Assembly (NCBI GenBank): GCA_028689665.1
Contig: JAQVCR010000013.1
Location: 2-64,001, forward strand
DNA from: Muribaculaceae bacterium
Lineage (GTDB): Bacteria > Bacteroidota > Bacteroidia > Bacteroidales > Muribaculaceae
DNA length: 64,000 nt
Direction: 5' to 3'
Position numbers and translations under genes: made by a program. Under the pieces are notes generated by a model that saw only the letters and a list, made by a program, of their open reading frames with translations, was not told the DNA's origin and did no database searches. Positions 30,958-64,000 of this stretch are shown piece after piece; positions within the stretch are counted from its first letter, which is position 1, and every line of letters starts with the position of its first letter.

Positions 30958-31749
30958 ATGAAAATATCTGTCGTTACAGCTGTGTTAAACAGCGCTAATA
31001 CATTGGGTAATACCCTACAATCGGTCTTAGAACAGACCTACGATGATGTAGAGTGTCTTGTCGTAGATGGCGGTAGCTCTGACGGCACTGTTGATGTTAT
31101 TAGAGAATATGAGCAAAAATTTGGAGGAAGGCTTCGCTGGATATCTGAAAGCGACAGCGGACTTTATGATGCTATGAATAAAGGCATAGAAATGTCGACC
31201 GGCGATGTTGTTGGCTTTATCAATTCGGACGACTATTATCATCGAAAGGATATTCTAAGTATTATAGCACATGAATTAGAGACCCACAAAGAAGTTGGTG
31301 CAGTGTATGGCGACCTGAAATATATATCAAAATACGACAAACGCATAATTGTCCGCCACTACTCGTCAAGCCACTTTAGCAATTGGAAATTCAGATTTGG
31401 GATAATGCCAGCCCACCCCACTTTCTTTACTTATCGACACTTCTACGATGATTGGGGATATTTCAAAGCAAACTATCAGATTTCGGGCGATTTCGAGTTG
31501 CTAATGCGATTTATGTATACCTATAAGATGAAAACACGATATTTGCCAATCGACTTTCTAAGAATGCGCGCAGGCGGACTCACAACTGCATCTTTTCATA
31601 ACACACTAATCGTAAACAAGGAGATACACCGAGCTTGCAAAGAAAATAATATACGCACTTTCTACCCATTGATATACAGTAAATATCTATTTAAAGTGTT
31701 TCAATGGTCGCCACAGGGATTCCTTCACAAATTGTTCAATAAATTATAG
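30958..31749 (+). CDS. glycosyltransferase family 2
   Basis: N-terminal ISVVTAVLNSANTL, a VDGGSSDGT segment, and DDY as the DxD motif. Confidence 0.75.
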   Translation: MKISVVTAVLNSANTLGNTLQSVLEQTYDDVECLVVDGGSSDGTVDVIREYEQKFGGRLRWISESDSGLYDAMNKGIEMSTGDVVGFINSDDYYHRKDILSIIAHELETHKEVGAVYGDLKYISKYDKRIIVRHYSSSHFSNWKFRFGIMPAHPTFFTYRHFYDDWGYFKANYQISGDFELLMRFMYTYKMKTRYLPIDFLRMRAGGLTTASFHNTLIVNKEIHRACKENNIRTFYPLIYSKYLFKVFQWSPQGFLHKLFNKL

Positions 31750-35325: not shown

Positions 35326-35354
35326 ATAATTTATTAATTAATACATTAATTCAT

Positions 35355-36692
35355 TCAATTTGCTAATTCCGGATTAGCTGCAACAGCCTCCGACGGAATA
35401 CGCAAAGTGTATCGCTTATCATTTTGTTGCAAGATAAAAGTCTCGCCACTATATATTTTTTGTAATTCTTGACGAGTAGTACGACGCAAGTCGAACCAAC
35501 GATGCCCTTCAAAAGCAAGCTCTCTGGCGCGCTCATTATACAGTTCTGCTCTAAGATCATCTATCGCCATATTATTAATTAAAGCTTCTTTAGCGGTGAA
35601 CGAAGACGCATTATATCTCGTTTTCATAAATGATAACAAGATTGTTTTTGCCTCAGCAATGCCAATTTCATCAGATTCAAGAGCTGCCTCGGCAGCATTC
35701 AAATATATTTCACCGGTACGGAAAGTGCAACGATAATTATCATCGCCACCTTTAAGAGCTTGAATATTCGATGCTGTGAGTAATTTATAATATTTGCTGC
35801 GTCTTAAATCGCCCGATGCATAAAGATTATAAAAAGTTTTATTCACCTTTCCCGCCTTTTGAAATTGTGCAGTTAAGTTACGCTCAAGCGATACGATCGA
35901 TTCTACCGAGCGGAAATCGTTAGGCAAATATTTAGAAAAATCTTCTAGTTCGCTACGTTTCTCAAGCACTTTCTTCGAAGCATTATAAGCCTCTTTCCAA
36001 CGCCCCATATAAAGATATACACGCGAGCGCAAAGCATCTACCGAGACAGTATTAAAACGATAAGTCAATCCCGTCTCCCAACTTTCTACATTTATTAGTT
36101 TTTCTGCCTCATCAATATCTCGAAGAATCTGTTCATACACATCACCCACAGTATTTCTTGAAAGCACTTTATCTACATCGGTATTCATCTTTAGCGGTAT
36201 AGCTTTAGTAGTGGCAGGATCGCAAGCTGTATAAGGCTCACCATATAAATTAACAAGGAGGAAGTGCATATAAGCACGCAACATGTAGCACTCACCTACT
36301 AATTGATTTATCACGGCAGGAGTGCCATTAGTGATTTTATCCTTACTGTCGATTGTATAGTTTGCACTAAACATAATCTGATAGTAGCTACGCCAATCGA
36401 AAGACGAAGTACTCTCAGAAGGGCTGTCATCATTCCATGTCCAAATATCTTTATATGAATTCAAGTCTTCTTTCGATAGAGCCGCATCCATAATAAATTC
36501 ATCGGAACGAAACGTTGACTTTCCTCTATCACTTGGGACAATAGAATAAGCATTGGTAACAAACTCACGAAATTCAGTAGCAGTCTGTGGAATTACCTTG
36601 CCGGTAGGTTGAATATCTAAGAAATCATCACACGAAATAAGTGTGAATGCTAGTGTGGCAGATAATATATATTTAAATAATCTATTCATCAT
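35355..36692 (-). CDS. SusD/RagB-family nutrient-binding outer-membrane lipoprotein
   Basis: Lipobox FTLISCDD, with the C-terminal RWFDLRR and NPELAN motifs. It lies immediately downstream of SusC. Confidence 0.85.
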   Translation of the reverse strand: MMNRLFKYILSATLAFTLISCDDFLDIQPTGKVIPQTATEFREFVTNAYSIVPSDRGKSTFRSDEFIMDAALSKEDLNSYKDIWTWNDDSPSESTSSFDWRSYYQIMFSANYTIDSKDKITNGTPAVINQLVGECYMLRAYMHFLLVNLYGEPYTACDPATTKAIPLKMNTDVDKVLSRNTVGDVYEQILRDIDEAEKLINVESWETGLTYRFNTVSVDALRSRVYLYMGRWKEAYNASKKVLEKRSELEDFSKYLPNDFRSVESIVSLERNLTAQFQKAGKVNKTFYNLYASGDLRRSKYYKLLTASNIQALKGGDDNYRCTFRTGEIYLNAAEAALESDEIGIAEAKTILLSFMKTRYNASSFTAKEALINNMAIDDLRAELYNERARELAFEGHRWFDLRRTTRQELQKIYSGETFILQQNDKRYTLRIPSEAVAANPELAN

Positions 36693-36702
36693 TATTATAA
36701 TT

Positions 36703-39700
36703 TTAGAAATTAACATTTAAGCTAAACGTAAAAGTCTTAGGTATAGGTTGAGCAAATTGATTACCCATAGTTTCAGGATCCAAATAATTATTATAATTAG
36801 CTCCAAAGACAAACAAGTTGCGTGCTTCAAGAGCAACAGTAACCGACTCCATTGATGCTTTTTTCACCCACTCAGATGGCAGACGATAGGCAAAACGTAC
36901 ATTTTGAAGACGCACATGGTCGCCACGCTTAACCCATGTATCTAATTGTTCATAAAGTCCGAACTCGGAATATCGAGCATATTCAGCTTGACGATAGCCC
37001 GACTGCATCAAAACAGGGAACAAAGTATTAGTGTTTGTTGAAGTCCAACGATTTAATATATCGGCATTTGAATTTAATCCCCTGTCAAAATTTGTCGGAG
37101 AATATGAAGGAGTAGTCTTAACATACATCTTAAGATTGAAGATAAAATTAAGTGATAACTCAAAATTGCGATAAGTGAACGTATTCATCAAACCACCGGT
37201 AAAGAGAGGATCAGACGAGCCAATATATGTATATAGATCACGTTGCTCGGCTGCGGTAAGTGTGCTGCCACCATAAGAATTCAGTTTAAGCAATTCTTGT
37301 GCATTAACTTTTTCGCCAGCCTTGTTATAGAATAGAGGATAGCCTTCATCATCAAGTCCGGCACTCTTATATGCAAATATTGCGCCAACAGGATAGCCTT
37401 CACGTCCCGGAGTAGTCTGATTTTCAGGAACACTTTCCTTCAACACTTTATTATTATTATACGCAAAGTTGAAATTTGTAAACCACATAAAATCTTTTGT
37501 ATGAATATTACGAGTGTTTATCGACACCTCAAAACCATCATTTTTCATACTAGCCCAATTCACATACATCGAAGAGAATCCACTCTCAAGTGGAAGCATT
37601 CTAATTGCAATTAAGTCAGACCCATCTCTATTATAATAATCCAGACTTAGAGATATTGCATTATTGAAAATGCTCATATCGGCACCGGCAGTAAATGTCT
37701 TAGTCTTTTCCCACCTTAATTTTGTATTAGGAGCTGTGCCTACAACAATCATATCTTCTGTATAGCCCGGAAGCATAGTGATATTTTGATAATAGCCCGT
37801 TACTTGCGAAGACGTACTCTTGTCTATATTTCCTTGAATACCATACGACAGACGGAATGCAAGATTATTTATTTTCTCTACCTCGTTCATAAATGGCTCG
37901 TCACTTAATCGCCATAGCCCGCTAACCGAATATAGTGGCAAAAAGCGGTATTTCTTATCTACTCCAAAAATATCAGAGCCATCGAAACGCACACTTCCAC
38001 CTAACGTGTAGCGATGCAGCAATGTATACGATGCAGTTGCAAAGAATGAAGCATAAGCATTCTCCGAGTAAGACTTTGTAGAAAGTGGATACTGCTTTGC
38101 CCATGTATCGCTAGGGAAAATAGGAGCAACCGATTGAAGAGTCTTTCTATTATAGCCGTATAATGTTGCAGTAGAAGCTTTATACCACGTCTTTCTGATT
38201 TCTGTTCCCACCATACCCTCAAGCTCGTGAATATCGGCGAATTTATTGCTATATTCTCCTTGTAGTTTCCACGTAATCTGCGAGTTAGTACTTGCAGCAT
38301 TAGTGCATTTACCTCCATCGGGGAGGAAAGAAGTGTTGTTTAAAACAGCCAAAGTGGTACGCTCTTTATCTTTACGCATTGCATAAGTATCATGGTCGGC
38401 AACCATCTCCTTATTTGTATCATCTAATTGTATACCTAGTTGTGTGGTAGCCTTGATCTGATCGTTTATTCTAAATTCAGCATCTAAAATTGCTTGAAGC
38501 GATTTTGTTTCAAGTTCGTAAGATGTTCCATCTCTCTCCTCGAAGATATTGAATTTTAAGTCAGAATCCTCTTTACCTTGTATATCGGTATCATAATTAT
38601 ACGAGCCATCGGCATTAAAAGGAGTCTGATAAGGATTTGCGCGACGTGAATAATATACAGGATTGGTAAATCCATCGGCATCGGTAAGATTAGACTTATT
38701 CACACGACGATTAGCAAAAAGCGAAGCCCCAACTTTAAACCTTCGTGAAAGACGGTAGCTGGTTTTTGCAACGAGATTGAAACGATTAGCCTCTACCCCC
38801 ACTACATTTCCCTTTTCGTCATTGTAGCCTAACGATGTGTAATAAGTCGCTTTGTCATTTCCGCCCGAAAGGCTTAAATTATATTCTTGATTAAATGTGC
38901 TGCGAAACAGAATATCATTCCAATCAGTATTAATCGAACGAAGGTTGTTTATACGTCCTTGTACATCACTAGTCAACGCATTCCAGCCATTTGCTTTGTA
39001 AGAATCGGTCAATCCGGCAGATGCTATGATTCGAGACACATCGCCTTTATTTTCGCGATATGTATATCCCGACTTTAGCAAATCTAACTCTAAATCCACT
39101 TTCTGTGACGAATTTAAAAGATTAAGGCGGTCAATATCTGTCTTAGGAGAGAAGGACAAACGTGTAGAGAATGTTATCTTAGTTTTTCCCACCTTACCAC
39201 TTTTAGTAGTAATAAGAATCACACCATTGGCGGCTCGCGCACCATAAATTGCAGTGGCGGCAGCATCTTTAAGTACGGTTATAGTTTCTATATCGGCAGG
39301 GTTAATACCTGCTACCGACGAAGAATACAGCTCATCTATATCTTTAAGGTCTTCCATACTAGGCAATGAAGTACCTTCCATAGGGATTCCATCGAGTACC
39401 CACAGCGGGTCTTGTGTGCCATTAAGCGAAGCTGTACCACGAATACGAATTTTCGCAGGCGCACCCGGCGCACCCGATGTAGCCACCGATGAAAGTCCGG
39501 CAACCTGCCCGGCTAATGCTTGGTCGACACTCATCACATCGCCCAGCATATTATCATTTACATTTACAGTGCTAATAGCGGCAGTCAATTTACGCTTTTC
39601 AATCTTCTGATACCCGGTAACAACCACCTCATCGAGCTGTGCCGACGATTTCAGTGTTATTACCATATTAGAAATATTATCTTTAAGCGGTACGCTCTGA

Positions 39701-39969
39701 GTGGAATAGCCCACATAACTACACTCAATGCTCTTAGTTTTATCCGGCACTTCGAGAGAGAAGTTGCCATCTAAATCGGTAACTGTGCTTACATTAACCT
39801 TATCGCTACCGATTTTTTTTAATTCGGCAACAGGGACAAAGATAGATGCACCAATTATCGTCTCATTATTATCCGATGCCATTACTTTACCTTGAATAGT
39901 CTTGGCAAAAACGTTATTGCTTGCTAAAGCGATAACCAGTATTGGTAATAAATATTTAATTGTACTCAT
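36703..39969 (-). CDS. SusC/RagA-family TonB-dependent outer-membrane transporter
   Basis: An N-terminal carboxypeptidase-regulatory-like domain (IQGKVMASDNNETIIGASIFV), a TonB box/plug region, and a terminal F. Confidence 0.9.
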   Translation of the reverse strand: MSTIKYLLPILVIALASNNVFAKTIQGKVMASDNNETIIGASIFVPVAELKKIGSDKVNVSTVTDLDGNFSLEVPDKTKSIECSYVGYSTQSVPLKDNISNMVITLKSSAQLDEVVVTGYQKIEKRKLTAAISTVNVNDNMLGDVMSVDQALAGQVAGLSSVATSGAPGAPAKIRIRGTASLNGTQDPLWVLDGIPMEGTSLPSMEDLKDIDELYSSSVAGINPADIETITVLKDAAATAIYGARAANGVILITTKSGKVGKTKITFSTRLSFSPKTDIDRLNLLNSSQKVDLELDLLKSGYTYRENKGDVSRIIASAGLTDSYKANGWNALTSDVQGRINNLRSINTDWNDILFRSTFNQEYNLSLSGGNDKATYYTSLGYNDEKGNVVGVEANRFNLVAKTSYRLSRRFKVGASLFANRRVNKSNLTDADGFTNPVYYSRRANPYQTPFNADGSYNYDTDIQGKEDSDLKFNIFEERDGTSYELETKSLQAILDAEFRINDQIKATTQLGIQLDDTNKEMVADHDTYAMRKDKERTTLAVLNNTSFLPDGGKCTNAASTNSQITWKLQGEYSNKFADIHELEGMVGTEIRKTWYKASTATLYGYNRKTLQSVAPIFPSDTWAKQYPLSTKSYSENAYASFFATASYTLLHRYTLGGSVRFDGSDIFGVDKKYRFLPLYSVSGLWRLSDEPFMNEVEKINNLAFRLSYGIQGNIDKSTSSQVTGYYQNITMLPGYTEDMIVVGTAPNTKLRWEKTKTFTAGADMSIFNNAISLSLDYYNRDGSDLIAIRMLPLESGFSSMYVNWASMKNDGFEVSINTRNIHTKDFMWFTNFNFAYNNNKVLKESVPENQTTPGREGYPVGAIFAYKSAGLDDEGYPLFYNKAGEKVNAQELLKLNSYGGSTLTAAEQRDLYTYIGSSDPLFTGGLMNTFTYRNFELSLNFIFNLKMYVKTTPSYSPTNFDRGLNSNADILNRWTSTNTNTLFPVLMQSGYRQAEYARYSEFGLYEQLDTWVKRGDHVRLQNVRFAYRLPSEWVKKASMESVTVALEARNLFVFGANYNNYLDPETMGNQFAQPIPKTFTFSLNVNF

Positions 39970-39980
39970 AATCCTCAGTA

Positions 39981-42554
39981 TTAATTATTAATGCCTAGTG
40001 CATTGTCTATTCTTATTATTATATCCTTATAATGATATTTTGTCGCGGTATCGGCTACCGACAAACTGCGTTTCATTAAATCTTTAATTCTTAATAATTC
40101 GCCTCGTTTCACCGAAATAGCATCGCTGGTGCGATTGATTTGACTTCCATAGAAACTCAACTCGCGACGTGCGCCCATTCTGTCACAATTGTCATGGTTA
40201 CAGAACGAATGCGAGCTATCGAAGAACCGGTCTTCAACGAGTTTTTTGTTAATTTTAATGCCTTCTGACGATGCTGCCGATGTGATAAGAGCGTCAATAA
40301 ATGCTTTTTGCAAGTTGCGAGTCATCACATCAGGGATTCTACCACTCTCGGTAGTAGCAAAAAATTGTTTATGTAAATCGTTTAATAGCTCAACAGCCGT
40401 ATATGCTTCTTTGCCATTTACCAGTTCATTTTCGAGCATCCTCATCAAGCGATAATTTGTCAATAAATCATACACAACATAAGCGACACAATTTTTATAA
40501 ACGTATGTTGGAGCGACCTCCACCATTCCCAGCGGTGTGTATTTGCGAAGATAAGTGTAGTTGGTAATATTTGTATCAAACAACCATGCCGGGAAAGTAA
40601 ACAATTCGTCGATTAAAAATTTCACTGATTCTTTCTGCTTTGCCTTTTCGACATAAGTATATGTTTTCTCGCCATCTCCTACCTCAGTATTCTCAATATA
40701 GATACCACCTACATTTGCCATTACATGATATAGATAATTGTTCCATTGATTAACAACCGAATAATATAGGCGTGAAGCATCTTTGTAGGTCTGCCCTTTT
40801 TCGCCCGTTGTAGTCCATTCTATTATGTGTGGCATTTCAAATTTCAAATTTGCTATACCATATTTTGATGACTTCACAGGATCGTTGCCTAAATCTTCAT
40901 TTTGAGCTCGCGGATCTACTGCATCGCGAGGATCTTGGGCTTCGCTATATTTATAAAGATTTCCTTTATGCTCCGACAATAGAGCGTGAAGATTCTCTTT
41001 TTCATCTTCCGGCTCAACATTGCCATACCAACGATAGCCATATTCTATTGCAAGATAATCATAAGGTCCAACGTGTGGTGCAACTTTTGTTACTCCATCA
41101 CCCGGTTGAGCTACATAATTATAGCGGGCATAATCCATAATTGATGATGACGTCGAATTAAGACGATCGGTAAATTCTTTAGAGCGCAATTGGTCGGTGG
41201 TAATAGCCCACGAACCCATCATATTATGGCGCAATCCTAGCGAGTGTCCCACCTCGTGGCACACTACAAATCTTATTGCATCGCCAATAATACTATCAGG
41301 CAATTCTGGTTTTCTTACATCGGGATTAATAGCACCGGTCTGCACTGTTATCCATTGTTGCAACATCGAAATTACATTGTGCCACCACATAATGTCGGCT
41401 TCAAGGATTTCACCCGAACGAGGGTCGAGCAATGAAGGTCCCATTGCATTCGACTTTGTCGATGCGGCATACATAATCTGCGAATAATTAACATCATCGG
41501 CATCTACAGCCATGCTATCAGTAAGCTCTTTAGCTATAATAGCATTCTTATATCCGATTTTCTCGAATGCTGCTTGCCACTCTTCGATACCTTCTTTAAG
41601 ATATTTGCGCCATTTTTTAGGTGTCGATCCGTCGAGATAAAATACTATCGGTTTTACCGGCTCTACCAACTCACCTTTAATATATGCTGCCTTATCGCTA
41701 GGCTCTAATCGCCAACGTGTAATAAAATTACGTTCATCTACTCGCTGTTGCGAATCGCTATAATACAGCATATCGGTAGTAAAATATCCTATTCGCGGCG
41801 AATCAAGGCGACCTCGCATTGGCGTCGTCGGCAATAAGACGATAGAAGAGCTTACTTCTAAGGTTATATTCACCGAGCTATTACCTTCGGTAACTTTAGT
41901 CGTTAATTCCGATATAGCTACCACATTGTCATTAAATGCTTTTATCGATTTTATTGTCGATAGATTTTTCTTTGCTGCCGTACCAAGATTGATGCTGTTA
42001 AATACATTATTTATGCTTGTATCTTCGCCATTGAAAACATCATTAACTTTTACGACTATTGTTGTCGAATCGCTATTGAAAGCTTCGATTTTAAACGACG
42101 TTATTAATGGTGAGATATAGTTGTCTTTTATCGAGCGAGTAATCGCATCATCGGCGGGAGATAGAGGCAATGGTCGAATTTGTCGAATATTTAGATTCTT
42201 CTTGTCGGCACTCATCTCAAACCAAATCATCTGATTCTCATAATTTGTACCACGGTTAACGCCTGCTTCATTTAATTCTAATGGAACTCTTGTGAGCTTA
42301 TTTACTACAAGCATATCGCGTTTTAATAACGACGATGGTATTTCAAAGTAAAAATCGCCTTTTTCCTTATAGACATTAAACAATCCCTTTGAAGCATTGA
42401 TACTATCTTTAGTCAATGTCTCATATTTAGTTTCAGTCTTCGTTTCCGACTTCTTTTTCTTCTTGTTCCAAAAAGCCGCCTCACATTCTAAAGTTGAAAA
42501 CGACATTGCTAACACAATTGCTACAGTTCCTAGTTCCTTAATATACTTCTTCAT
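39981..42554 (-). CDS. secreted zinc metalloprotease (met-zincin, DUF5117/DUF4953-type)
   Basis: The HEVGHSLGLRHN zincin motif and a signal peptide. Confidence 0.75.
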   Translation of the reverse strand: MKKYIKELGTVAIVLAMSFSTLECEAAFWNKKKKKSETKTETKYETLTKDSINASKGLFNVYKEKGDFYFEIPSSLLKRDMLVVNKLTRVPLELNEAGVNRGTNYENQMIWFEMSADKKNLNIRQIRPLPLSPADDAITRSIKDNYISPLITSFKIEAFNSDSTTIVVKVNDVFNGEDTSINNVFNSINLGTAAKKNLSTIKSIKAFNDNVVAISELTTKVTEGNSSVNITLEVSSSIVLLPTTPMRGRLDSPRIGYFTTDMLYYSDSQQRVDERNFITRWRLEPSDKAAYIKGELVEPVKPIVFYLDGSTPKKWRKYLKEGIEEWQAAFEKIGYKNAIIAKELTDSMAVDADDVNYSQIMYAASTKSNAMGPSLLDPRSGEILEADIMWWHNVISMLQQWITVQTGAINPDVRKPELPDSIIGDAIRFVVCHEVGHSLGLRHNMMGSWAITTDQLRSKEFTDRLNSTSSSIMDYARYNYVAQPGDGVTKVAPHVGPYDYLAIEYGYRWYGNVEPEDEKENLHALLSEHKGNLYKYSEAQDPRDAVDPRAQNEDLGNDPVKSSKYGIANLKFEMPHIIEWTTTGEKGQTYKDASRLYYSVVNQWNNYLYHVMANVGGIYIENTEVGDGEKTYTYVEKAKQKESVKFLIDELFTFPAWLFDTNITNYTYLRKYTPLGMVEVAPTYVYKNCVAYVVYDLLTNYRLMRMLENELVNGKEAYTAVELLNDLHKQFFATTESGRIPDVMTRNLQKAFIDALITSAASSEGIKINKKLVEDRFFDSSHSFCNHDNCDRMGARRELSFYGSQINRTSDAISVKRGELLRIKDLMKRSLSVADTATKYHYKDIIIRIDNALGINN

Positions 42555-55181: not shown

Positions 55182-55200
55182 TATATTTGTATTATATTTG
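55182..55200 (+). promoter_or_regulatory. two -7 boxes TATATTTG in an 11-nt direct repeat (tattatatttg x2)
   Basis: Both match TAnnTTTG and lie 25-36 nt upstream of the ATG at 55226. Confidence 0.5.
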
Positions 55201-55225
55201 TATGTTATTATTTAATCAACTTGCC

Positions 55226-57637
55226 ATGAAGAGAATTACTAAATTTGGCTTATGTATATATGCCATCTTATTTGCAGTTTCTGCATCAGCCGAAATACCT
55301 CAAGGATATTATAATAATGCAGAAGGAACAAAACGCGAAAAACTCAAATCGGCGCTATGTAAAATAATAAAACCTTCCAAAGTATTAAAATATGGAGGTA
55401 AAAGTGAAGGCTACACTTGGGAAGGCTTTACAAAAACCGACGTCGCCGAAAACGGAAGTGTACTCGACAGATATTCTAATGAAATTCGCCGTTTTAATGG
55501 AATTAACGCTGTTTCGGGTATGCACATCGAGCATAGCTTTGCTAATAGTTGGTGGGGCGGCATTAATAACGATGCCTACAAAGACTTACACCACCTTTAT
55601 CCTGCCGACGCATCGGCTAACATGAGCAAAAGCAACCACCCTATCGGTATAGTTACCGAACCCGGAGGATTTGATAATGGCGTTACAAAAACCGGACTGT
55701 CTAATTGTTTCCGTGCCGACACTCTAATCAAAGTGTGGGAACCTGCCGATATATATAAAGGCGATTTCGCTAGAACTTATATGTATATGGCTACTTGCTA
55801 CGAAGATTACACCAAACTTTGGACTTCTAACGACGGACTGCTTATGATTGAAAAAGACACATATCCACTACTTCGTCCGTGGGTGGTCGATCTCCTTATT
55901 CAGTGGAATCGTCAAGACCCAGTGAGCGTACTCGAGCAACAACGAAATGAAAATGTATATGCTATTCAAGGAAACAGAAATCCGTTTATCGACTATCCTC
56001 AACTTGCCGAATATATTTGGGGTGATAAAACCGACTCTTACTTCTATACCGAGGTAAGCTCCGACTCAAAGCTTTACATCCCTTCAGACAATAGCACATT
56101 AGATTTTGGACTTCAAGCATTAAGCCTCGGAGCAAAAAAAGAATTAAACATTCGCGGAATTAATCTTACCGAAAACCTCACAATATCTATATCTAACAAC
56201 AACTTCACAATCGACAAGACTATTCTTACTCCGGATGAAGTGAAATCAGGAAGAATTATTAATATTAGCTCTAAACCGGCTTCTGCCGGCGCTATAAATG
56301 CCATAATAACATTATCATCCGGCGCTATCTCTAATAAAGTTTATATAACTGCCGAATTTATTGACGGTCTTCCTGCATTTGAAGCTACCGAAATATCTTG
56401 CGCAAATTTCTCGAAAAGTTTTGTGGCAAGCTGGTTGCCCATTCCCGGAGAGACTCAATATTCTCTCGATGTGTACACTAAAAAAGGCGAAACAAAGACT
56501 AGCATCGCAGGCTACCCTAAAACAATTAAAGATACCTCAGCAAAAGTTACAGTAACCGAAGCCGAAACTACATATTATTACACAGTAAGCTCCTCTACCC
56601 TTACTTCTAACGAAATAACTGTGTTGATGCCCTCAGTTCCTCCCGTATTTTCTGTAAATCGTAACGATGCCCAATTTTTCTCTCGTCCCGGTTTAGTCTC
56701 ATTTCCTCAAATAATAACGATGGAAACTAGCGGCTTATCTTCCGACGTGTATGAAATTGTGGCAGAATCACCTTTTGAATTAAGCAACGATGAGACAGTG
56801 TGGAGCGACAAACTCACAATAACAGGCAAAAATCAATCCTTCTTTATTCGATTAGGAAAGATAGCCAACGAAGGAACTTGTGAAGGCGAAGCTATCATTT
56901 CTGCACCGGGCGCCGAAGATGTGATTATTAATCTAAAAGCCGACGTAAGCTATCAACGTGCATTCTTTGAAAACTTTGAAATAGGCACGAAATCATCTTA
57001 TGCTCTAAAAAATGTGAAATGCACATCTGCCGAATGGGCAATGAATAACGCATTAATAGGAAGCATCGCCAACGATAAAAGAAATAATGAGAAGAGTGCA
57101 AGAATTAAAGGCGAAGGAAGTATATACACAGTCAATGCTAACGCCGATGGTTTAGGCAAAATTTCTTTCTATGCCGGCTCCTATGGAACCGACTCGGGAA
57201 TGTCGCTGAAACTAGAATACAGCATCGACAACGGCATAACATGGACACCTATCATAAGCGAATTACCTCTAGCAACCAAAAAATGGAAAAAATATGAATA
57301 CGAGCCTCGCATCGATGGCTACGTAATGCTTAAATTCACAGCCATAGGCAGCGCAAGTAAACGCGTAAATGTAGACGATATTCAATATATGGACTACAAG
57401 ACTATATCAAGCGCAGAGGCAACAGTAGCCGACAACAAATCGACTGTTACAGCAACAGGCTCAACAATAGCCATTACAACCTCCGAAGATGCCACTGCTA
57501 CAATTTTCGACTCTAAAGGGACAACCATTATGACCCGAAATATAAAAGCAGGCAAATCCACAATCAACTGCAACACACCTCCGGGCTGTTACATTGTAAA
57601 ATTAGGCAACGACACTCACAAATTAATACTAAAATAA
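55226..57637 (+). CDS. secreted endonuclease I family nuclease, paralog of 5961-8342, with T9SS C-terminal sorting domain
   Basis: The start is moved to MKRITKFGLCIYAILFAVSASA. Carries HIEHSFANSWWGG and HHLYPADASANMSKSNHPIG, and the tail CYIVKLGNDTHKLILK. Confidence 0.8.
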   Translation: MKRITKFGLCIYAILFAVSASAEIPQGYYNNAEGTKREKLKSALCKIIKPSKVLKYGGKSEGYTWEGFTKTDVAENGSVLDRYSNEIRRFNGINAVSGMHIEHSFANSWWGGINNDAYKDLHHLYPADASANMSKSNHPIGIVTEPGGFDNGVTKTGLSNCFRADTLIKVWEPADIYKGDFARTYMYMATCYEDYTKLWTSNDGLLMIEKDTYPLLRPWVVDLLIQWNRQDPVSVLEQQRNENVYAIQGNRNPFIDYPQLAEYIWGDKTDSYFYTEVSSDSKLYIPSDNSTLDFGLQALSLGAKKELNIRGINLTENLTISISNNNFTIDKTILTPDEVKSGRIINISSKPASAGAINAIITLSSGAISNKVYITAEFIDGLPAFEATEISCANFSKSFVASWLPIPGETQYSLDVYTKKGETKTSIAGYPKTIKDTSAKVTVTEAETTYYYTVSSSTLTSNEITVLMPSVPPVFSVNRNDAQFFSRPGLVSFPQIITMETSGLSSDVYEIVAESPFELSNDETVWSDKLTITGKNQSFFIRLGKIANEGTCEGEAIISAPGAEDVIINLKADVSYQRAFFENFEIGTKSSYALKNVKCTSAEWAMNNALIGSIANDKRNNEKSARIKGEGSIYTVNANADGLGKISFYAGSYGTDSGMSLKLEYSIDNGITWTPIISELPLATKKWKKYEYEPRIDGYVMLKFTAIGSASKRVNVDDIQYMDYKTISSAEATVADNKSTVTATGSTIAITTSEDATATIFDSKGTTIMTRNIKAGKSTINCNTPPGCYIVKLGNDTHKLILK

Positions 57638-57638: not shown

Positions 57639-57684
57639 TAAGTTAAGCATGCGGTTCAATAAAATGAGCCGCATGCTTAACTTA
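57639..57684. terminator. 16-bp perfect hairpin between convergent genes (taagttaagcatgcgg / ccgcatgcttaactta)
   Basis: Read directly from the sequence. Confidence 0.75.
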
Positions 57685-57745: not shown

Positions 57746-59596
57746 CTACTCCTCTTTTTTTATTACAAAATTATATAAGTTATCAATATTGTCGTAATCA
57801 TATTCTCTAAATTTATCATTAAAACACTCTTCCACTTTAGGTAATCCGTTCCAATCGACAAGACAACTATGAAGTTTCTTTTGTTCATCTTTCCTTACAT
57901 TTCCTAATTCCTTTGATGATTCGATTGAAAGAGTTTGCCACCCTCTTACAAAGTGAAAAGCATTCCATCTGAGATGCTCTGTAACAGCCAAATTTGTGCG
58001 TAATGTGGGATTACCCTTGATAAAGCTTTTATATCCGGCTTCTCCCAAGTCTTTAACTTTCGCTTCATCAAGTCCCATAAGTTTTAGTTTTGTAAAAATA
58101 TGTGTTGCAGTAGCAATGTTTGACAATCGAATATGATAACTCATTCTTTGATATTGTTGCCCCTTGCTCTTATTATAGGAGTTATTAATCATAAATGCTT
58201 GTTGATGAAGTTTCTTGTCAGCCAGATTTTCATAAGAGAATATAGAATATTCCTGCCCAATAAGAATAATGTCGTTTAAATTATTTACCGAAATATTTGA
58301 AATGGCATCTTCATCTTTTATGGCGGCAAATATCTGAATTTTGCTATCTCCTCGTTGCTTCAATAGCGAATTTATATTCATTGCAGTCTTTATGGTGTCT
58401 TCATCAGATTGAAGTGCAATGAATATCTGTTTCACGGAGCCTCCTATAGTTTCTATTAAACGGTAAAATTTTGAAGACCCGATGGCATAACTATATTGCC
58501 CCGATATATCATAGCTATCGGATATGGCAGGATTCAATGCAGTAAAACTCCCAATCAAATTATCAATATTTTCATCAATAATATGTGCCTTAAAGTGTGA
58601 GCCTACAAATTGACCATATTCTATCACATTCCTAAGTATGGCATTCCCGTAATTACCAAATCCAATTATTGCCACTTCATAGTCGGTCTCGGCACACCCA
58701 TTATGATCAAATTTCATTCCGGGCGATGAAACGGGAGGATATTTCATTATCAAATCTTTAGCAACAATGCTTGCATCATCGAAGATATACAGCTTAATAT
58801 TATCATCAAGGGTCGTATACCTCTCTATAACAACAGGATAGAGCATATCACTGTGTAATCTGATATATATATTTAAGTCTAAAGCATTTAAGCCGATGTC
58901 GGTAATCCGTTTGATAGTCAAATCTACTCTTTTTATATTATCATATTCTACATTCGACAGAAAATAGAGCGTCGTTTTATTCTTTACCAACACACGCCTT
59001 ATCAACTTCTCTCGATATGCTTTATATGGCGACTCTCTCGCTATAATTATGGCATCCGACAGTAGTGTGCCTTTTAAGCGTTGTAATAAGTCGAGATAGC
59101 AATTATTAATCATAAATACTATCACTGATTTCTTATCTTTTTCTTTTATGTCATTCGCTAGTGTTATACTTGCAGTGTTATCGTCAAAAAATAAGTAATA
59201 ATTCTTATCAGCTCTGCCAAATAGTATTCGCATAAGATTTACCAATCGTGTCCCAAATAATGATAGTGTTATTGATATCACTAATAAAAGTGCGGCAATA
59301 TGAGTAATCGCAAATGCAACAAGCATATACGTATTGTCATAATAATCTTTTATCATTTCGTAATCAGGAAGCAGAATTAGCGACCGAGCTGTAGACATGG
59401 CAGCGTGTAACGAAGAATAAAAGAATGGTTCAGACCTATCAACATAGGCAATGAAATATACCATGAAACCGCCTCCGATTGCTACTATCGACAGTATATT
59501 TCGCAGCTCTCTATAATGGCTTTTGTTTTTAATTATTATTGCACAGAATAATAATATCACAAATAAAAAACTTATAAGATTGATTAATGTTATCAT
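57746..59596 (-). CDS. membrane protein: 3 N-terminal TM helices, two Rossmann-like modules, C-terminal RyR-like domain
   Basis: GFGNYG (GxGxxG) motif. The C-terminus LAVTEHLRWNAFHFVRGW...KKLHSCLVDWNGLP resembles the RyR-domain (PF02026) pattern E-H-x-W...GW...K-x-H-P-x-L-V-P-[YW]. Confidence 0.55.
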   Translation of the reverse strand: MITLINLISFLFVILLFCAIIIKNKSHYRELRNILSIVAIGGGFMVYFIAYVDRSEPFFYSSLHAAMSTARSLILLPDYEMIKDYYDNTYMLVAFAITHIAALLLVISITLSLFGTRLVNLMRILFGRADKNYYLFFDDNTASITLANDIKEKDKKSVIVFMINNCYLDLLQRLKGTLLSDAIIIARESPYKAYREKLIRRVLVKNKTTLYFLSNVEYDNIKRVDLTIKRITDIGLNALDLNIYIRLHSDMLYPVVIERYTTLDDNIKLYIFDDASIVAKDLIMKYPPVSSPGMKFDHNGCAETDYEVAIIGFGNYGNAILRNVIEYGQFVGSHFKAHIIDENIDNLIGSFTALNPAISDSYDISGQYSYAIGSSKFYRLIETIGGSVKQIFIALQSDEDTIKTAMNINSLLKQRGDSKIQIFAAIKDEDAISNISVNNLNDIILIGQEYSIFSYENLADKKLHQQAFMINNSYNKSKGQQYQRMSYHIRLSNIATATHIFTKLKLMGLDEAKVKDLGEAGYKSFIKGNPTLRTNLAVTEHLRWNAFHFVRGWQTLSIESSKELGNVRKDEQKKLHSCLVDWNGLPKVEECFNDKFREYDYDNIDNLYNFVIKKEE

Positions 59597-59632
59597 TATA
59601 TTTTAATATATTAGAATTCGACCATAATGTGA

Positions 59633-60973
59633 TTAATTAATTGTATCGCGATGCATACATTCTGTTTCATCTATTCTTGAATCATCATTTATATGCTTAA
59701 TGACTTCTTCTTTACCGATTATTTTGAGAAAATCTGAAACCTCCGGAGGAATATAGTTGTCCTTAACTACAAAGTAAAGATATAATGCTTTACTTATTGG
59801 CTCTCCATCTTTTCGCAACTCATAAACACACCCATTGTCGTTCTTGTAAGCAGAACCGTCAGGAATATAATATTCACTTCCTAGCAGTATACAGCCTTTA
59901 TTCTTGTGCAATTTCAATTCTATTCTATTGAAATCGTTATAGAATTCCACCGAATTATTAGCATCTAGCTTATTTGTCAACAGGCTGTTGTAATGCTTAA
60001 GCGTACTGCTTGCCAGTGTAGTCCTAAATATATTTATCGTTTTGTCTTCAAAATATTTGTGAAGTAACAAATCTAGATTTTGAACTGTTATCGTCTTATT
60101 TTTCTCATTTACAAATTCCTTGAATTTATCTTTTGGTATCAGAAGAACTGAAAGATTATCCATATCGTTGCCTAAAGCAACCTCTACCAATTTCAGTTTT
60201 TGCTTTTGTAACCTTAATATCTGTAATGAATCAAAAATCTGATTAATATCGGCTCTTCCAGCCGACATGGCAATAACATGATAATTCTTTGCACCTTCGG
60301 TCCCTACTTCTCGCAGTAGTCTTAAAGCGTTATATGTAGCAGCATTAAAAATAAATATATCCGAGTTATTATGTATGCCCTCAAATGTATTTAGATACTT
60401 ACACACAGTGCCACTTCCCATCAAGAATAAATGCTTATAGGAATGTGATTGTCTGAGATTGCCAAATAGAAAGCCTAAAGCCATTAACAATAACGACGCA
60501 AAAACAAATATTGCTATCTTCTTTTTATTCCAATACTTAGAAGGTGGGATAATAGTTGTATTGTGATTTATGAATTGCGAAATAGATTGCGCTACTTCAT
60601 TCATATTAGAATTAGTAACTATATGCTTGTCTTGTAGATGCAGCTTTAGCTGTCCTCTCAATTCAGAGCTGTCTAGGCTTATTGGGATAATATCAATATT
60701 ATTATCAAACGCAATTCCTACTTCATTCTTTACATAGTTTGAGTTACCGGCATCTTTTGAAAGTAATACAACAACTGCTTTTACTCCAATTATTATATCC
60801 GGTATTATATCACCAAATCGGCTTCCTCCTTTCAGCTGCTCTTTAGCAAGCCATGGAACAGCGCCGCTATTCCGTAATTCTTCGCATAGCTTACTTGCGA
60901 CGGCTTCATCTTCATGAGAATAACTGATAAAGACATCAAACTTGATATTTTTTTTAGTGCTATCTATTTCCAT
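59633..60973 (-). CDS. TIR-domain protein with one TM helix and ~270-aa predicted extracytoplasmic C-terminal domain
   Basis: FDVFISYSHEDEAVA...VVVLLSKDAGNSNYVKNEVGIAF is a TIR core with a candidate catalytic Glu. KYWNKKK precedes the TM helix IAIFVFASLLLMALGFLFG, so the positive-inside rule places the TIR in the cytoplasm. Confidence 0.7.
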   Translation of the reverse strand: MEIDSTKKNIKFDVFISYSHEDEAVASKLCEELRNSGAVPWLAKEQLKGGSRFGDIIPDIIIGVKAVVVLLSKDAGNSNYVKNEVGIAFDNNIDIIPISLDSSELRGQLKLHLQDKHIVTNSNMNEVAQSISQFINHNTTIIPPSKYWNKKKIAIFVFASLLLMALGFLFGNLRQSHSYKHLFLMGSGTVCKYLNTFEGIHNNSDIFIFNAATYNALRLLREVGTEGAKNYHVIAMSAGRADINQIFDSLQILRLQKQKLKLVEVALGNDMDNLSVLLIPKDKFKEFVNEKNKTITVQNLDLLLHKYFEDKTINIFRTTLASSTLKHYNSLLTNKLDANNSVEFYNDFNRIELKLHKNKGCILLGSEYYIPDGSAYKNDNGCVYELRKDGEPISKALYLYFVVKDNYIPPEVSDFLKIIGKEEVIKHINDDSRIDETECMHRDTIN

Positions 60974-61004
60974 CGTTGTAATAAATAAGGTCTAATTTAT
61001 TGTC

Positions 61005-61499
61005 TTATAATTTCGCACCGCAATTGTTGCAAAACTTTGCTTTGCTTTCTTGTTGAGCCCCGCAAGTTGTACAAAATTTCATAGTAGAATTATCTGATTC
61101 AACAGGGTGGCTGTCGACATACGCTTGTGCTATATTGATTGCTTGTTCATCTAATTGTGATTGCTGTATCATTCCCCAAATCTGTGGAATCAAGACAGGC
61201 CAAAATACCAGCATCGAGATAGCTGTAGGCAATGCCTGCTGCCCGAAAATACCTACTCCGGCTTCTATGAATATAGAATCATTAAGTGGCTGAATATTGA
61301 TTTTTAGAGCTGTACGCATTCCTAACACAGCCTTAAACACTCCTCCTTTTGTAATAGATATATCGTATGTGCCACCTATTAGCTCTTGTGCAACAACCTC
61401 ATACCCATCATTCTTATAGAATCGTTCAATTTCTCGGGCAATTCCGGGAATATACGATGGCGATGAAGAAATAGTCTTTTTTGATTTAAAAGTTCCCAT
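61005..61499 (-). CDS. hypothetical protein with C-terminal zinc ribbon
   Basis: FCTTCGAQQESKAKFCNNCGAKL at the C-terminus, plus one hydrophobic segment. Confidence 0.5.
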   Translation of the reverse strand: MGTFKSKKTISSSPSYIPGIAREIERFYKNDGYEVVAQELIGGTYDISITKGGVFKAVLGMRTALKINIQPLNDSIFIEAGVGIFGQQALPTAISMLVFWPVLIPQIWGMIQQSQLDEQAINIAQAYVDSHPVESDNSTMKFCTTCGAQQESKAKFCNNCGAKL

Positions 61500-61504
61500 A
61501 CATT

Positions 61505-62386
61505 TTATTTTAATTTAGTTCCACAATGTCTACAAAACTGCCACTCCGAGTCAATATCATTGCCACAATTCGGGCATCTATCTTTGCTACTCTCACCTTT
61601 TGTATTCAAATTATTGATGATACGACGATATTGCTCACTTCGGCTCCATAATAATATTTCGCGCACACGAACAGCGGCAAAAGGATGCGAATTATTCATC
61701 GTTGCCAATACCTGCAACGTCTTGTTCCATAAGCCGCCATCGCGAATATCCTCGTAGCGCTCGGCTTGTGTTGCCCACTCTTCAATGTTAATGTCGTCGG
61801 TTACACATTTAGGACCGCCTGCCAATCGTACTTGAGTACGAAGCACCGCATCAACATTAGTTATAAGTGCAGCCGCTCGGTCGCACGAAAGCTCACTCTT
61901 GCGTTGCCAATATAGCAATGCATACTTTATAGGAGCTAAAATATCACCAAGAAGTCCCATCGAGCCATTCAGCAACATAGTTGCCATAGTGTGATACAAT
62001 ACATGGTGGCAGGCTATATGACCACACTCGTGTGCAATCACAGAGTCAACCTCTTCATCATCAAGATATTCCAATAGCCCGGAAGTTACGACAATAAATA
62101 TCTGGCTATCGCCATAAGTATAAGCATTTGGCGACGGATCCATCTGAAGATAAAATTCAGGCTCCTTAATTCCCAATTGATTACAAATGCGTGGCAACCT
62201 ATTATATATCTTAGGCAGCTGCGTAGGCGATAGACGTATCGTTGATGCCATGTTTATACCATGGTACATCTTTTCAAATCCCATCTTCAGGAATGCCTTT
62301 ACAGCGACCGAAAAACCCGGGATAGCCTCCATGTTGCGAAGTGCCGCCTCATCTTCGGGGTGTATAAAATCTTGTGCGTGTATCAT
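61505..62386 (-). CDS. M48-family zinc metallopeptidase (no signal peptide) with C-terminal zinc ribbon
   Basis: HECGHIACHH (HExxH) motif and RCPNCGNDIDSEWQFCRHCGTKL at the C-terminus. Confidence 0.7.
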   Translation of the reverse strand: MIHAQDFIHPEDEAALRNMEAIPGFSVAVKAFLKMGFEKMYHGINMASTIRLSPTQLPKIYNRLPRICNQLGIKEPEFYLQMDPSPNAYTYGDSQIFIVVTSGLLEYLDDEEVDSVIAHECGHIACHHVLYHTMATMLLNGSMGLLGDILAPIKYALLYWQRKSELSCDRAAALITNVDAVLRTQVRLAGGPKCVTDDINIEEWATQAERYEDIRDGGLWNKTLQVLATMNNSHPFAAVRVREILLWSRSEQYRRIINNLNTKGESSKDRCPNCGNDIDSEWQFCRHCGTKLK

Positions 62387-62387
62387 A

Positions 62388-64000
62388 TTATTTATTTATT
62401 TTCTGAGACTTCCATTGTTCATACTTCTGTAATATTATTTGTACCATTTTCGAGTCTGCTGGAGGAGTATAAGACGAAAACTGAATACCGATTTTACCCG
62501 GTTCAAACGACTCTTCAATAATATTTAGATTTTCATCCATGAACACTATATGTCTCGTATTATTTGCATTCTGCATAATTACCCCACTCATTGGATAAAT
62601 TGGGTCATATATATTCCAAGAACAAAATTCAAGAATAAAATAGACACCCTTAAGCCCTTTATTATACGCAACGCCTCCTTCTACAGGAGTGCCAGTGACC
62701 AAATCTTTCCATATAAGTTGCCCCTTATCATCATATTTATATGCCGCAGAAAAAAACTTCATTGCTAAGTCATAGCGCTTGGTATCATAATATAACGCCC
62801 CCAAATTATTTTGAACACCTGTTATATTTTCAGAAAAGACTTCTGGATTCTTTTCTGCTAATTGCTTATAAATTTCCAAAGCCGAATTAAACATTTTTTC
62901 CGCCAATTCATAGCGCTGTGCTTCTCTATATAAATGTCCTAGATTTAGTTTGACACGAGCTACATCGGGAGTATATACATCCGGATTCTTTTCTGCCAAT
63001 TGATTATACGTATTCAAAGCTAAATTGAACAAATTTTCGGCTAAGTCATAGCGTTGTGTACTATAGTAGAAATATCCTAAATTGTTTTGCGCACTTGCAA
63101 CAAATCTTGAATATACTTCTTGATTATTCTTGCATAGTTTAGTATAATTTTCTATCGTAGCTTTATACATATTTTCTGCTAAATCATAACGCTGTGTATC
63201 GCCATATATAGTAGCTAAGTTATTTTGCGCCATAGCTACATCTTGGAGGTAAGTTTCAGGGCTTATAATAGCTAATTCATTGTAAAGTGATAGCGCTGAC
63301 TTTAAATATTTTTCTGCTAAATCATATTGTTGTTTAGCACTATAAAAGGTCCCCAAATTATTTTGTATGTTAGCCTCATTTTTTGAATACACATCAGGAT
63401 TCTTTTCTGACAATCGTTGAAAAATTTCTAACGATGATTTATACAGACTTTCGGCTGAGTCATATTGTTGAGTCTCTTCATATAAACCCGCCAAACTATT
63501 TTGTTCATTTGCTACATAAGAGCTATACACTTCTGAATTCTTTTCTGCCAATTGCTTATAAATTTCCAGCGAAGATTTATACATATTTTCGGCTAAATCA
63601 TAACGCTGTGTTTCTCGATATAAAATACCTAAATTATTCTGTATGTTTGCAACTTTTTTAGAATACACATCTCGATTCTTTTCTGCTAATTGTTGATAAA
63701 TATCCAATGAAGATTTATACGAACCTTCAGATAAGTCATAACGCTGCGTTTCTTGATATAAACAGCCTAAACTATTCTGTATGTTTGCAACATTTTTAGA
63801 ATACACATCTCGATTCTTTTCTGCTAATTGTTGATAAATATTCAACGAAGATATAAGTATACTTTCTGCTAAGTCGTAGCGTTGTGTATCTTTATAAATA
63901 AGTCCTAAATTATTTTGTTGCAATGCCATAACTGGGGAATATACCATCGGATTTGTTTCTACCAATTGTTTATAAATTTCCAGCGAAGATTTAAGCATAT
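62388..64000 (-). CDS. TPR-repeat protein (about nine ~46-aa repeats) plus ~115-aa C-terminal domain; N-terminus beyond window
   Basis: The repeat YSKxVANIQNxLGxLYxETQRYDLAExxYKSSLxIYxQLAEKNxxV recurs. The reading frame is still open at the window edge. Confidence 0.75.
   Translation of the reverse strand, partial: MLKSSLEIYKQLVETNPMVYSPVMALQQNNLGLIYKDTQRYDLAESILISSLNIYQQLAEKNRDVYSKNVANIQNSLGCLYQETQRYDLSEGSYKSSLDIYQQLAEKNRDVYSKKVANIQNNLGILYRETQRYDLAENMYKSSLEIYKQLAEKNSEVYSSYVANEQNSLAGLYEETQQYDSAESLYKSSLEIFQRLSEKNPDVYSKNEANIQNNLGTFYSAKQQYDLAEKYLKSALSLYNELAIISPETYLQDVAMAQNNLATIYGDTQRYDLAENMYKATIENYTKLCKNNQEVYSRFVASAQNNLGYFYYSTQRYDLAENLFNLALNTYNQLAEKNPDVYTPDVARVKLNLGHLYREAQRYELAEKMFNSALEIYKQLAEKNPEVFSENITGVQNNLGALYYDTKRYDLAMKFFSAAYKYDDKGQLIWKDLVTGTPVEGGVAYNKGLKGVYFILEFCSWNIYDPIYPMSGVIMQNANNTRHIVFMDENLNIIEESFEPGKIGIQFSSYTPPADSKMVQIILQKYEQWKSQKINK

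Follow-up and report, generated by a model that had tools for sequence, protein, structure and literature searches.

TIR and RyR genes joined in a Muribaculaceae operon: a candidate Thoeris-like nucleotide signaling system

Why should a bacterium place a TIR domain next to a ryanodine receptor (RyR) domain? The question is raised by five close-packed genes on the minus strand at one end of a 64,000-nucleotide (nt) stretch of Muribaculaceae bacterium DNA (GenBank assembly GCA_028689665.1, contig JAQVCR010000013.1, positions 2 to 64,001; herein the window, whose numbering is used for all coordinates without a locus prefix). In the order of transcription they encode a tetratricopeptide repeat (TPR) protein, an M48 zinc metallopeptidase, a Zn-ribbon protein, a TIR protein with a transmembrane (TM) helix and, last, a membrane protein (herein gene 5) that combines two Rossmann-like domains with a RyR domain at its C-terminus. 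An initial annotation of this DNA regarded the cluster as a candidate undescribed TIR-based conflict or signaling system, a proposal that has withstood the checks of domain content, co-conservation and known systems reported here. Judging from sequence, we hold with moderate confidence that the cluster is one of a widespread and unnamed group of TIR–RyR gene clusters that most likely work in the manner of Thoeris.

The RyR domain assigned to the C-terminus of gene 5 (57746–59596, minus strand; 616 amino acids [aa]; RyR domain of the R12 type at 57761–58006) calls for more than a single-sequence comparison. Alone, the window protein reaches 14.6 bits (E = 0.04) against the Pfam RyR family (PF02026), below the cut-off of 27.4, and in a phmmer search of the PDB all eight of its top matches are RyR repeats, at E ~0.5. 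Such evidence is insufficient, and we therefore used profile methods. Whether started from gene 5, the TIR protein or the profile of the gene 5 family, word-indexed homologue searches found hardly any relatives; the family was collected by an exhaustive search of cluster representatives, of which 1177 matched at E <= 1e-3 and, among these, 508 at E <= 1e-10. Most are about 620 aa long and align end to end. Sequence identity of gene 5 within this RyR family is low among relatives (median 24%, maximum 33%). A profile built from 58 members matches the RyR-repeat structure 6UHI (2.2e-8) and 3NRT (5.8e-4) in the PDB, the latter being the structure of a Bacteroides thetaiotaomicron "putative ryanodine receptor." Individually, 7 of the 58 members match Pfam RyR at E <= 0.01 (best 1.1e-5). 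In a profile–profile comparison with hhalign, the C-terminus of the family aligns with canonical standalone RyR proteins at 97.2% probability (E = 3.7e-11); these targets, proteins of about 96 aa from related loci, themselves match PF02026 at 1.7e-38. The identity of the C-terminal domain as a RyR domain is thus supported at the profile level, and the RyR-like end that the initial annotation had described is borne out by the matches of the profile to PDB structures and to other profiles, although the window protein by itself fails the Pfam threshold.

The pocket of this domain is strongly conserved. Residues H541, W544, H576 and D600 are invariant or nearly so among the 58 family members, and hhalign places them on the canonical H-x-x-W, H(PCLV) and (Y)D positions. 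The spacing in the canonical RyR domain (W to H, +22; H to D, +17) is that of W78, H100 and D117 in the phage protein RyDEP, in which H75 and D117 form a glycosidase dyad, W78 stacks on the adenine and H100 binds the phosphates of 3'cADPR, an isomer of cyclic ADP-ribose (cADPR) (PMC13232231). A second phage protein, "RyR Tad," binds 3'cADPR, 2'cADPR and cADPR with nanomolar affinity via the equivalent residues (bioRxiv 2026.06.04.730250). Most of the phage RyR proteins tested bind rather than cleave their ligand, their conserved residues notwithstanding (PMC13232231), and both 2026 preprints concern phage proteins only (PMC13232231; bioRxiv 2026.06.04.730250). Mapped by motif order and spacing, gene 5 appears to possess all four of the residues that contact 2'/3'cADPR in phage RyR proteins.

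Ahead of the RyR domain, gene 5 begins with a membrane module (59219–59596) in which hydropathy shows three strong TM segments, followed by Rossmann-like domain 1 (58742–59203) and a TrkA_N/RCK-like domain 2 (58259–58681). Domain 2 contains GFGNYG at residues 312–317, in agreement with GxGxxG, and an aspartate, D341, that is invariant in the 12 closest members. The Rossmann part of the initial annotation accordingly appears to hold at the family level (11 of the 58 members match Pfam TrkA_N, PF02254, best 1e-9) and by its GxGxxG...D motif, with only a weak Pfam score for the window protein itself (E ~0.03). The distribution of charges suggests an N-terminus on the outside, a basic loop in the cytoplasm between TM1 and TM2, an acidic loop on the outside between TM2 and TM3 and cytoplasmic domains after TM3; the outer loop is predicted to hold a conserved helix with the family motif LRxxxSTxRMF. 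This unit of TM segment, loop helix and TM segment in front of RCK-type domains suggests a resemblance to the layout of RCK-gated channels. A K+ selectivity-filter motif was not found in gene 5, and none of the 58 members matches a Pfam ion-channel family.

The candidate source of a signal for such a pocket is encoded 36 nt upstream. The TIR protein (59633–60973, minus strand; 446 aa) has an N-terminal TIR domain (60554–60943) that scores 63.4 bits against Pfam TIR_2 (cut-off 28), and the candidate catalytic glutamate of the initial annotation is E84 of the YVKNEVG motif, which falls in an alignment column that is Glu in 132 of 145 TIR domains (91%; that of the window plus 144 from related loci). 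Hydropathy places one TM helix at residues 153–171 (60461–60517), and the 275-aa C-terminal domain beyond it (59636–60460), predicted to be extracytoplasmic, has no relative or family that homologue and Pfam searches could find; similarity to relatives is confined to the TIR domain, with a maximum identity of 42%. The same topology is common in related loci, where 73 of 144 TIR open reading frames (ORFs) carry the TIR domain at the N-terminus and a predicted TM helix after it, with more than 150 aa beyond the helix in 61 of these 73. By its predicted topology, the window protein fits a receptor-like class of TIR proteins with a cytoplasmic TIR domain, one TM helix and an outer domain. Other domains fused to TIR in related loci are TPR, WD40/PD40, Sel1 and WG repeats, FGE-sulfatase and CarboxypepD_reg. 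A conserved protein of 361–381 aa with a C-terminal CarboxypepD_reg domain is encoded upstream of giant TPR genes in four loci (L011:1434-2576, L014:3145-4233, L019:412-1542 and L022:364-1446), and the N-terminus of the L011 protein is itself a TIR domain (TIR_2 1.3e-11).

Are the two domains linked beyond this genome? A pattern scan with a 12-sequence alignment of the RyR family over one genome per GTDB species gave 80 loci (counts below are over 79 species genomes), hosted by Bacteroidota, Bacillota, Treponemataceae and Fibrobacteres, and their ORFs were searched with the window proteins and an iterated TIR model; Pfam TIR_2 confirmed 51 of 60 scanned TIR proteins (that of the window and 59 called by the hidden Markov model). 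The frequency of TIR ORFs falls with distance from the RyR-family gene, from 20/148 (13.5%) at ±1 to 15/128 (11.7%) at ±2, 9/113 (8.0%) at ±3 and 7/105 (6.7%) at ±4; none lies beyond ±7, so that positions ±8 or more have 0/180 (0%). Comparison of near (±1–3) with far (±8 or more) positions gives a Fisher p of 3e-8. All 44 of the TIR ORFs within three genes of the RyR-family gene lie on its strand, and the 59 TIR ORFs of these loci fall into 27 similarity clusters. Overall, 31 of the 79 loci have a TIR gene within three genes, and in 17 of the 20 closest loci, of the Bacteroidota type, the RyR-family gene adjoins members of one or more of the window's partner families. Close packing of the genes is seen in relatives as well as in the window. 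Locus L011 is a near-complete counterpart of the window arrangement: its gene order is TIR–CarboxypepD_reg (381 aa), TPR (1640 aa), M48, TIR (317 aa), Zn-ribbon, RyR-family and standalone RyR. A Firmicutes cassette, found for example in Mogibacterium, lacks M48 and consists of two tandem RyR-family genes that overlap by 4 nt, a gene for a 281-aa TIR protein and one for a 686-aa TIR-TPR protein, with gaps of 2–30 nt or 4-nt overlaps throughout (L047:9911-16268; also L048, L060, L061, L071, L072 and L079).

The linkage recurs when the search starts from the peptidase. Scanning metagenomes with the M48 protein returned 80 gut and rumen loci at 56–63% identity, of which 49 are at least 8 kb long and were used for counting. 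A Zn-ribbon gene lies within 3 genes of M48 in 43 of these 49; within 6 genes of M48 we found a TIR gene in 31, a RyR-domain gene in 33, one or the other in 42 and both in 22, and in the remaining 7 neither TIR nor RyR genes were detected with the models used. M48 and the Zn-ribbon gene hence form a fixed core in Bacteroidales, around which lie TIR genes, RyR-domain genes and often genes for sigma factors of the extracytoplasmic function (ECF) type. The TIR, RyR and TPR genes differ from locus to locus in their number, arrangement and domain make-up, and the five genes of the window do not recur as one constant set; their co-conservation is that of modules, with the M48/Zn-ribbon core fixed and TIR and RyR genes recurrently linked to it.

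The RyR domain in M48 loci is also found on other proteins than the gene 5 type: fused to a C39-like peptidase, fused to RCK (a protein of about 665 aa that recurs in these loci) and standalone. The peptidase fusion, of about 334 aa, combines a C39-like/Guanylate_cyc_2-like papain fold with a canonical RyR domain (PF02026 1.6e-29; L127:12249-13247 and 33 other loci); its gene usually adjoins the M48 and Zn-ribbon genes, and we regard it as a second candidate RyR-sensor effector. The standalone proteins of about 96 aa (L112:10725-11012 and 28 other loci) resemble PDB 3NRT and are often encoded directly downstream of a TM–TrkA_N–RyR gene; they may be host-encoded buffers or hydrolases of the signal. 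Three further families accompany the M48 loci. An 85-aa protein without a family match (L131:8348-8602 and 49 other loci) is encoded directly after M48 in 44 of them, its gene standing between the M48 and Zn-ribbon genes in most Bacteroidales loci; in the window these two genes are 5 nt apart. An ECF-type sigma-70 factor is encoded inside TIR/RyR/M48 loci (L008:2078-2641 and 29 other loci), with TIGR02937 matched by 15 of 15 scanned. Neither the sigma gene nor the 85-aa gene was found within the 64-kb window, and both could lie upstream of the contig break. A homologue of MscS-like mechanosensitive channels (MS_channel_2nd, 6e-8; L096:12339-13619 and 8 other loci) is encoded 4–6 genes downstream of M48.

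The three remaining window proteins agree with what the initial annotation had called a soluble M48 protease, a small Zn-ribbon protein and a long TPR array. The M48 peptidase (61505–62386, minus strand) scores 73.7 bits against Pfam Peptidase_M48 (cut-off 20.3; domain 61652–62200), carries the zinc site HECGH (HExxH) at residue 119 and ends in a Zn ribbon (CxxC...CxxC, 61511–61585; Zn_ribbon_3 1.9e-8); hydropathy finds no TM segment in it, unlike HtpX and Ste24. Its 88 homologues in related loci have a median identity of 58% (maximum 76%). The partner (61005–61499, minus strand; 164 aa) comprises an N-terminal domain without assignment, one hydrophobic helix (61167–61235) and a C-terminal CxxC...CxxC Zn ribbon (61008–61079) that passes the Pfam threshold (Zn_Ribbon_1, 6.6e-7); its gene stands at +1 or +2 from M48 in 61 related loci, with a median identity of 50% (maximum 58%). 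Most plausibly this module acts by regulated proteolysis; in relatives the 85-aa protein and an ECF sigma factor accompany it.

The TPR gene (62388–64000, minus strand; ORF listed at 62388–63998) is truncated at its 5' end. At least 536 aa are visible, made up of a TPR_10/TPR_12 array (62727–64000; Pfam TPR_12 1.1e-53, TPR_10 1e-40) and, at the C-terminus, a domain of about 110 aa without TPR (62391–62726). This C-terminal domain matches the C-terminus of a 1058-aa protein of locus L008 (2e-10), which starts with a TIR domain followed by TPR and whose gene directly follows the M48 and Zn-ribbon genes; because the domain is common to both, the missing N-terminus of the window protein may also be a TIR domain. 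No NTPase of the kind that marks the STAND and Avs proteins (P-loop, NB-ARC or similar) was found in the visible 536 aa, from which the N-terminus is cut off, and the full-length TPR proteins of the relatives L011, L014, L019 and L022 contain TPR families only, by Pfam. We rejected orthology of the window protein with the giant TPR proteins of relatives, the similarity being at the level of the repeats with many offsets and only the C-terminal domain being specific.

That the operon is cut at the window edge, as initially noted, is evident from the TPR ORF, which is open there, and from the source contig of this metagenome-assembled genome (64,059 nt), which is only 59 nt longer than the window. 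A tandem DNA repeat of 138 nt (46 aa; 4.8 copies, ~75% matches) within the TPR gene reaches this edge, and the only other assembly that an exact-sequence look-up found to hold an identical M48 gene, the independent Logan assembly SRR22315505, has a contig that also ends inside the TPR gene; on both counts the 5' end appears to have been lost to a repeat-driven assembly break. The ORF listing again yields five genes on one strand with gaps of 1, 5, 31 and 36 nt from the TPR gene to gene 5. At the other end, a hairpin at 57641–57684 sits between the stop of a convergent Endonuclease_1 gene (57637) and that of gene 5 (57746), with a stem of 15–17 bp, a folding energy of −41.2 kcal/mol (z = −7.8; 0 of 200 shuffles equally stable) and a U-rich tract after it on the operon strand; position and folding energy bear out the strong hairpin that the initial annotation had ascribed to both transcription units, and it is likely a bidirectional terminator for them. 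A simple scan of the operon strand revealed no convincing internal terminator. The convergent gene (55187–57637, plus strand) encodes an 816-aa Endonuclease_1 protein (1e-41) with a weak C-terminal match to the Por secretion (type IX secretion system, T9SS) sorting domain and is probably a nuclease that is secreted and has no connection with the cluster. The visible flank is otherwise housekeeping in content (DEAD-box helicase, pseudouridine synthase, S13 peptidase and a SusC/D pair). In the window, 33601–42554 on the minus strand is an ordinary Bacteroidales nutrient-uptake locus that encodes a SusC-like TonB-dependent receptor and a SusD-like protein, together with an 857-aa Met-zincin (DUF4953) and a protein bearing a T9SS sorting domain, and about 17 ORFs on the plus strand form a long close-packed run at 13889–31749.

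From the observed domain identities, conserved residues and gene linkage we infer the chemistry and direction of a signal, the action of its effector and a role for the M48 module. Upon a stimulus, sensed by its variable outer domain or via the TPR protein, the membrane-anchored TIR protein would convert NAD+ to a cyclic or otherwise modified ADP-ribose nucleotide. The nucleotide would bind the C-terminal R12-type RyR pocket of gene 5, which would then alter the permeability of the membrane and so lead to growth arrest or abortive infection. The M48 and Zn-ribbon proteins would serve as a conserved Bacteroidales accessory module, probably for regulated proteolysis, with a link to the ECF sigma factor in relatives.

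Several points weigh against this Thoeris-like reading. The RyR match of gene 5 alone falls short of the Pfam cut-off, as given above, and the RyR domain could destroy the signal instead of sensing it, because the His/Asp dyad of the RyDEP glycosidase is kept. AlphaFold2 models of gene 5 (from a 5-sequence alignment) and of the TIR protein (from a single sequence) reached predicted local distance difference test (pLDDT) scores of 45.9 and 36.2 and were unusable, and the channel-like idea therefore draws on topology and secondary structure only. The window TIR domain is closer to the models of NADase-type TIR proteins than to that of ThsB. Of the RyR-family loci, 48/79 have no TIR gene within 3 genes, and many Firmicutes copies stand amid housekeeping genes (SecDF, NusG). 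Finally, no mobile-element or defence genes occur in the visible flank of the window, the other flank being beyond the contig end; what is visible is housekeeping DNA and no defence island.

The alternative that survives best retains the same chemistry outside immunity. Receptor-like TIR proteins would report envelope or gut cues through a trans-envelope second-messenger pathway, the nucleotide would gate the RyR/RCK membrane protein, and M48, the Zn-ribbon protein and an ECF sigma factor would turn the signal into transcription by regulated proteolysis. The TIR–TM topology of half of the TIR proteins in related loci (73/144) fits such a role, as do the envelope modules fused to them (CarboxypepD_reg, FGE-sulfatase, PD40/WD40, Sel1), the sigma factor of 30 related loci (TIGR02937 in 15/15 scanned), the core-gene-like identities of M48 and its partner (medians of 58% and 50%) and a visible flank of housekeeping genes. 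No sigma-factor gene is visible in the window, however, and the number, arrangement and domain make-up of the TIR and RyR genes change from locus to locus, with a median identity of 24% for the RyR family against 58% for M48; this variability and fast divergence form a pattern usual for conflict systems. Moreover, bacterial TIR signaling of known function is immune, and RyR domains have so far been documented in Thoeris counter-defence only (PMC13232231; bioRxiv 2026.06.04.730250). We judge a non-immune pathway less likely than an immune one, if still worth holding in view.

Less probable again is that the TIR proteins are effectors that deplete NAD+, with RyR proteins that buffer stray products of the cADPR type, hydrolyse them or sense NAD(H) via TrkA_N, thereby averting self-intoxication or resetting the system. 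The best matches of the window TIR protein in PADLOC-DB 2.0 are indeed to effectors of the NADase type (SAVED-TIR, 1.3e-12; prokaryotic Argonaute [pAgo]-associated TIR, 1e-6), ahead of ThsB (2.5e-5). The catalytic His/Asp pair of RyDEP is retained in the pocket, standalone RyR proteins of about 96 aa in 29 related loci have the size of sponge proteins, and domain 2 of gene 5 has an intact GxGxxG...D dinucleotide-binding motif. Buffering, however, leaves the fusions of RyR to a multi-TM module, to RCK and to a C39-like peptidase unexplained, since these resemble outputs, and most tested phage RyR proteins bind and do not cleave (PMC13232231). Least probable of all is that the five genes do not form a single system, M48 and Zn-ribbon being a housekeeping pair, the TIR, RyR and TPR genes unrelated cargo and the operon a matter of packing: M48 and its partner are far better conserved than their neighbors, gene order around them varies, 7 of the 49 long M48 loci have no detected TIR or RyR gene and Firmicutes TIR and RyR genes co-occur without M48, yet the genes share a strand, lie 1–36 nt apart and have one strong terminator, behind the last of them, the cargo at M48 is repeatedly TIR and RyR, unlike the mixed content of a general hotspot, and TIR–RyR linkage occurs in four phyla independently of M48.

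The Thoeris-like reading matters for several reasons. The 2026 demonstration that phage RyR proteins bind or cleave TIR-made cADPR isomers makes the pairing of TIR and RyR far more meaningful than the initial annotation had argued. We know of no cellular RyR-domain receptor for cADPR-isomer signals in bacteria, and the loci described here offer candidates in the form of a channel-like membrane protein, a peptidase fusion and a standalone domain, tied to TIR genes with a catalytic Glu in four phyla. If true, the reading would add a new sensor domain to the Thoeris family, give phage RyR sponges a likely origin and provide a simple system for the long-standing question of whether nucleotides of the cADPR type can act on a membrane channel by way of an R12-type RyR domain; to our knowledge, direct binding of cADPR to the animal R12 domain is not established. 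Receptor-like TIR topology and the M48/Zn-ribbon/sigma module point to input from outside the cytoplasm, unusual among known bacterial TIR systems, and the carriers are abundant gut and rumen Bacteroidales. A bolder version, which we put forward tentatively, is that the clusters form a complete bacterial axis in which a TIR protein of Toll-like-receptor topology makes a cyclic ADP-ribose-type nucleotide, which by way of an R12-type RyR domain directly gates a channel-like membrane protein and also acts on RyR-fused peptidases, with M48, Zn-ribbon and ECF sigma as a transcription branch. In such an axis one might see a prokaryotic precursor of the long-debated connection of cADPR with the animal ryanodine receptor, and the host-side target that phage RyR sponges and glycosidases have copied.

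How, then, does the cluster compare with known systems? In line with the initial annotation, which saw no canonical defence system here, PADLOC-DB 2.0 matched only the TIR domain above noise when searched with the five window proteins and the other RyR-domain proteins, the other match being at chance level in the TPR array, and NCBIfam gave the window proteins only matches far below threshold and no Thoeris effector. Canonical Thoeris I–IV, CBASS, Pycsar, retron-TIR and pAgo-TIR were hence rejected, as only the TIR domain matches their models; no CD-NTase or pyrimidine cyclase, the marks of CBASS and Pycsar, was found among the five proteins by Pfam or PADLOC-DB 2.0. A phage origin was likewise rejected, IMG/VR holding no viral relatives of the full-length gene 5 family and PHROGs giving weak, uninformative matches only. 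A search of the accessible literature for systems that combine TIR with RyR, or TIR with M48, found no further example.

Animal ryanodine receptors, with cADPR, SARM1 and CD38, resemble the cluster, in which an R12-type RyR domain is likewise attached to a membrane protein and shares a genetic unit with a putative TIR-family NAD+ cyclase; only the repeat of about 90 aa is held in common, and gene 5 lacks the channel core and the other RyR domains. RCK/KTN (TrkA_N) channels and transporters (MthK, Kch, Trk/Ktr) have a membrane module followed by cytoplasmic Rossmann domains with GxGxxG...D, a layout that is predicted for gene 5 as well; gene 5 differs in its missing K+ selectivity filter, its weak TrkA_N match and its C-terminal RyR domain. 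The phage proteins RyDEP and RyR Tad (PF02026) agree with gene 5 in fold family and in the His, Trp, His, Asp pocket; they are small and soluble, sequester or cleave the host signal and counter Thoeris, whereas gene 5 is host-encoded, carries its RyR domain as the C-terminus of a 616-aa membrane protein and is genetically linked to TIR genes. CalpL–CalpT–CalpS, in which a type III CRISPR signal acts on a protease, an anti-sigma factor and an ECF sigma factor, offers a parallel to the related loci, which pair a protease (M48 or C39-like–RyR), small partners and an ECF sigma factor in a putative nucleotide-signaling locus, with other protease families, another sensor domain and, in the window, no visible sigma factor.

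The closest comparison is with Thoeris itself, whose sensor domains are fused to varied effectors. As in Thoeris (types I–XI, with a ThsB TIR protein and an effector that bears a sensor such as SLOG or Macro), the cluster has a TIR domain with the catalytic Glu, and a gene on the same strand 36 nt downstream joins a small domain with a putative nucleotide pocket to a membrane or enzymatic output; related loci place the same sensor domain on several outputs and often contain several TIR genes. PADLOC and NCBIfam match gene 5 to no named effector type (ThsA, ThsC–ThsL), the "ion channel" effector of type X lying outside this comparison. The type X TIR sequence (Table S1) had 12 matches in plasmids, and both of the two neighborhoods inspected were of type II, with a macro-domain partner. 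On present evidence, and with the type X effector outside the comparison, we therefore liken the cluster to Thoeris in its working and assign it to no named type. A 2025 preprint on Thoeris sets out 29 putative types; in its text and in the parts of its tables searched, it has no RyR or TrkA effector category and names ryanodine receptors only when discussing animal cADPR. The cluster, known from its genes alone, thus differs from Thoeris in its RyR (R12) sensor, which is absent from PADLOC 2.0, from the NCBIfam Thoeris models and from the text and searched tables of the 2025 survey, and in its conserved M48/Zn-ribbon module; many TIR proteins of related loci are predicted to be membrane-anchored with large outer domains, whereas ThsB is small and soluble. 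Overall, the cluster is best classed as TIR-based nucleotide signaling, distinguished by RyR as a linked sensor module, by many receptor-like TIR proteins and by a conserved M48/Zn-ribbon module that is joined in relatives by an ECF sigma factor.

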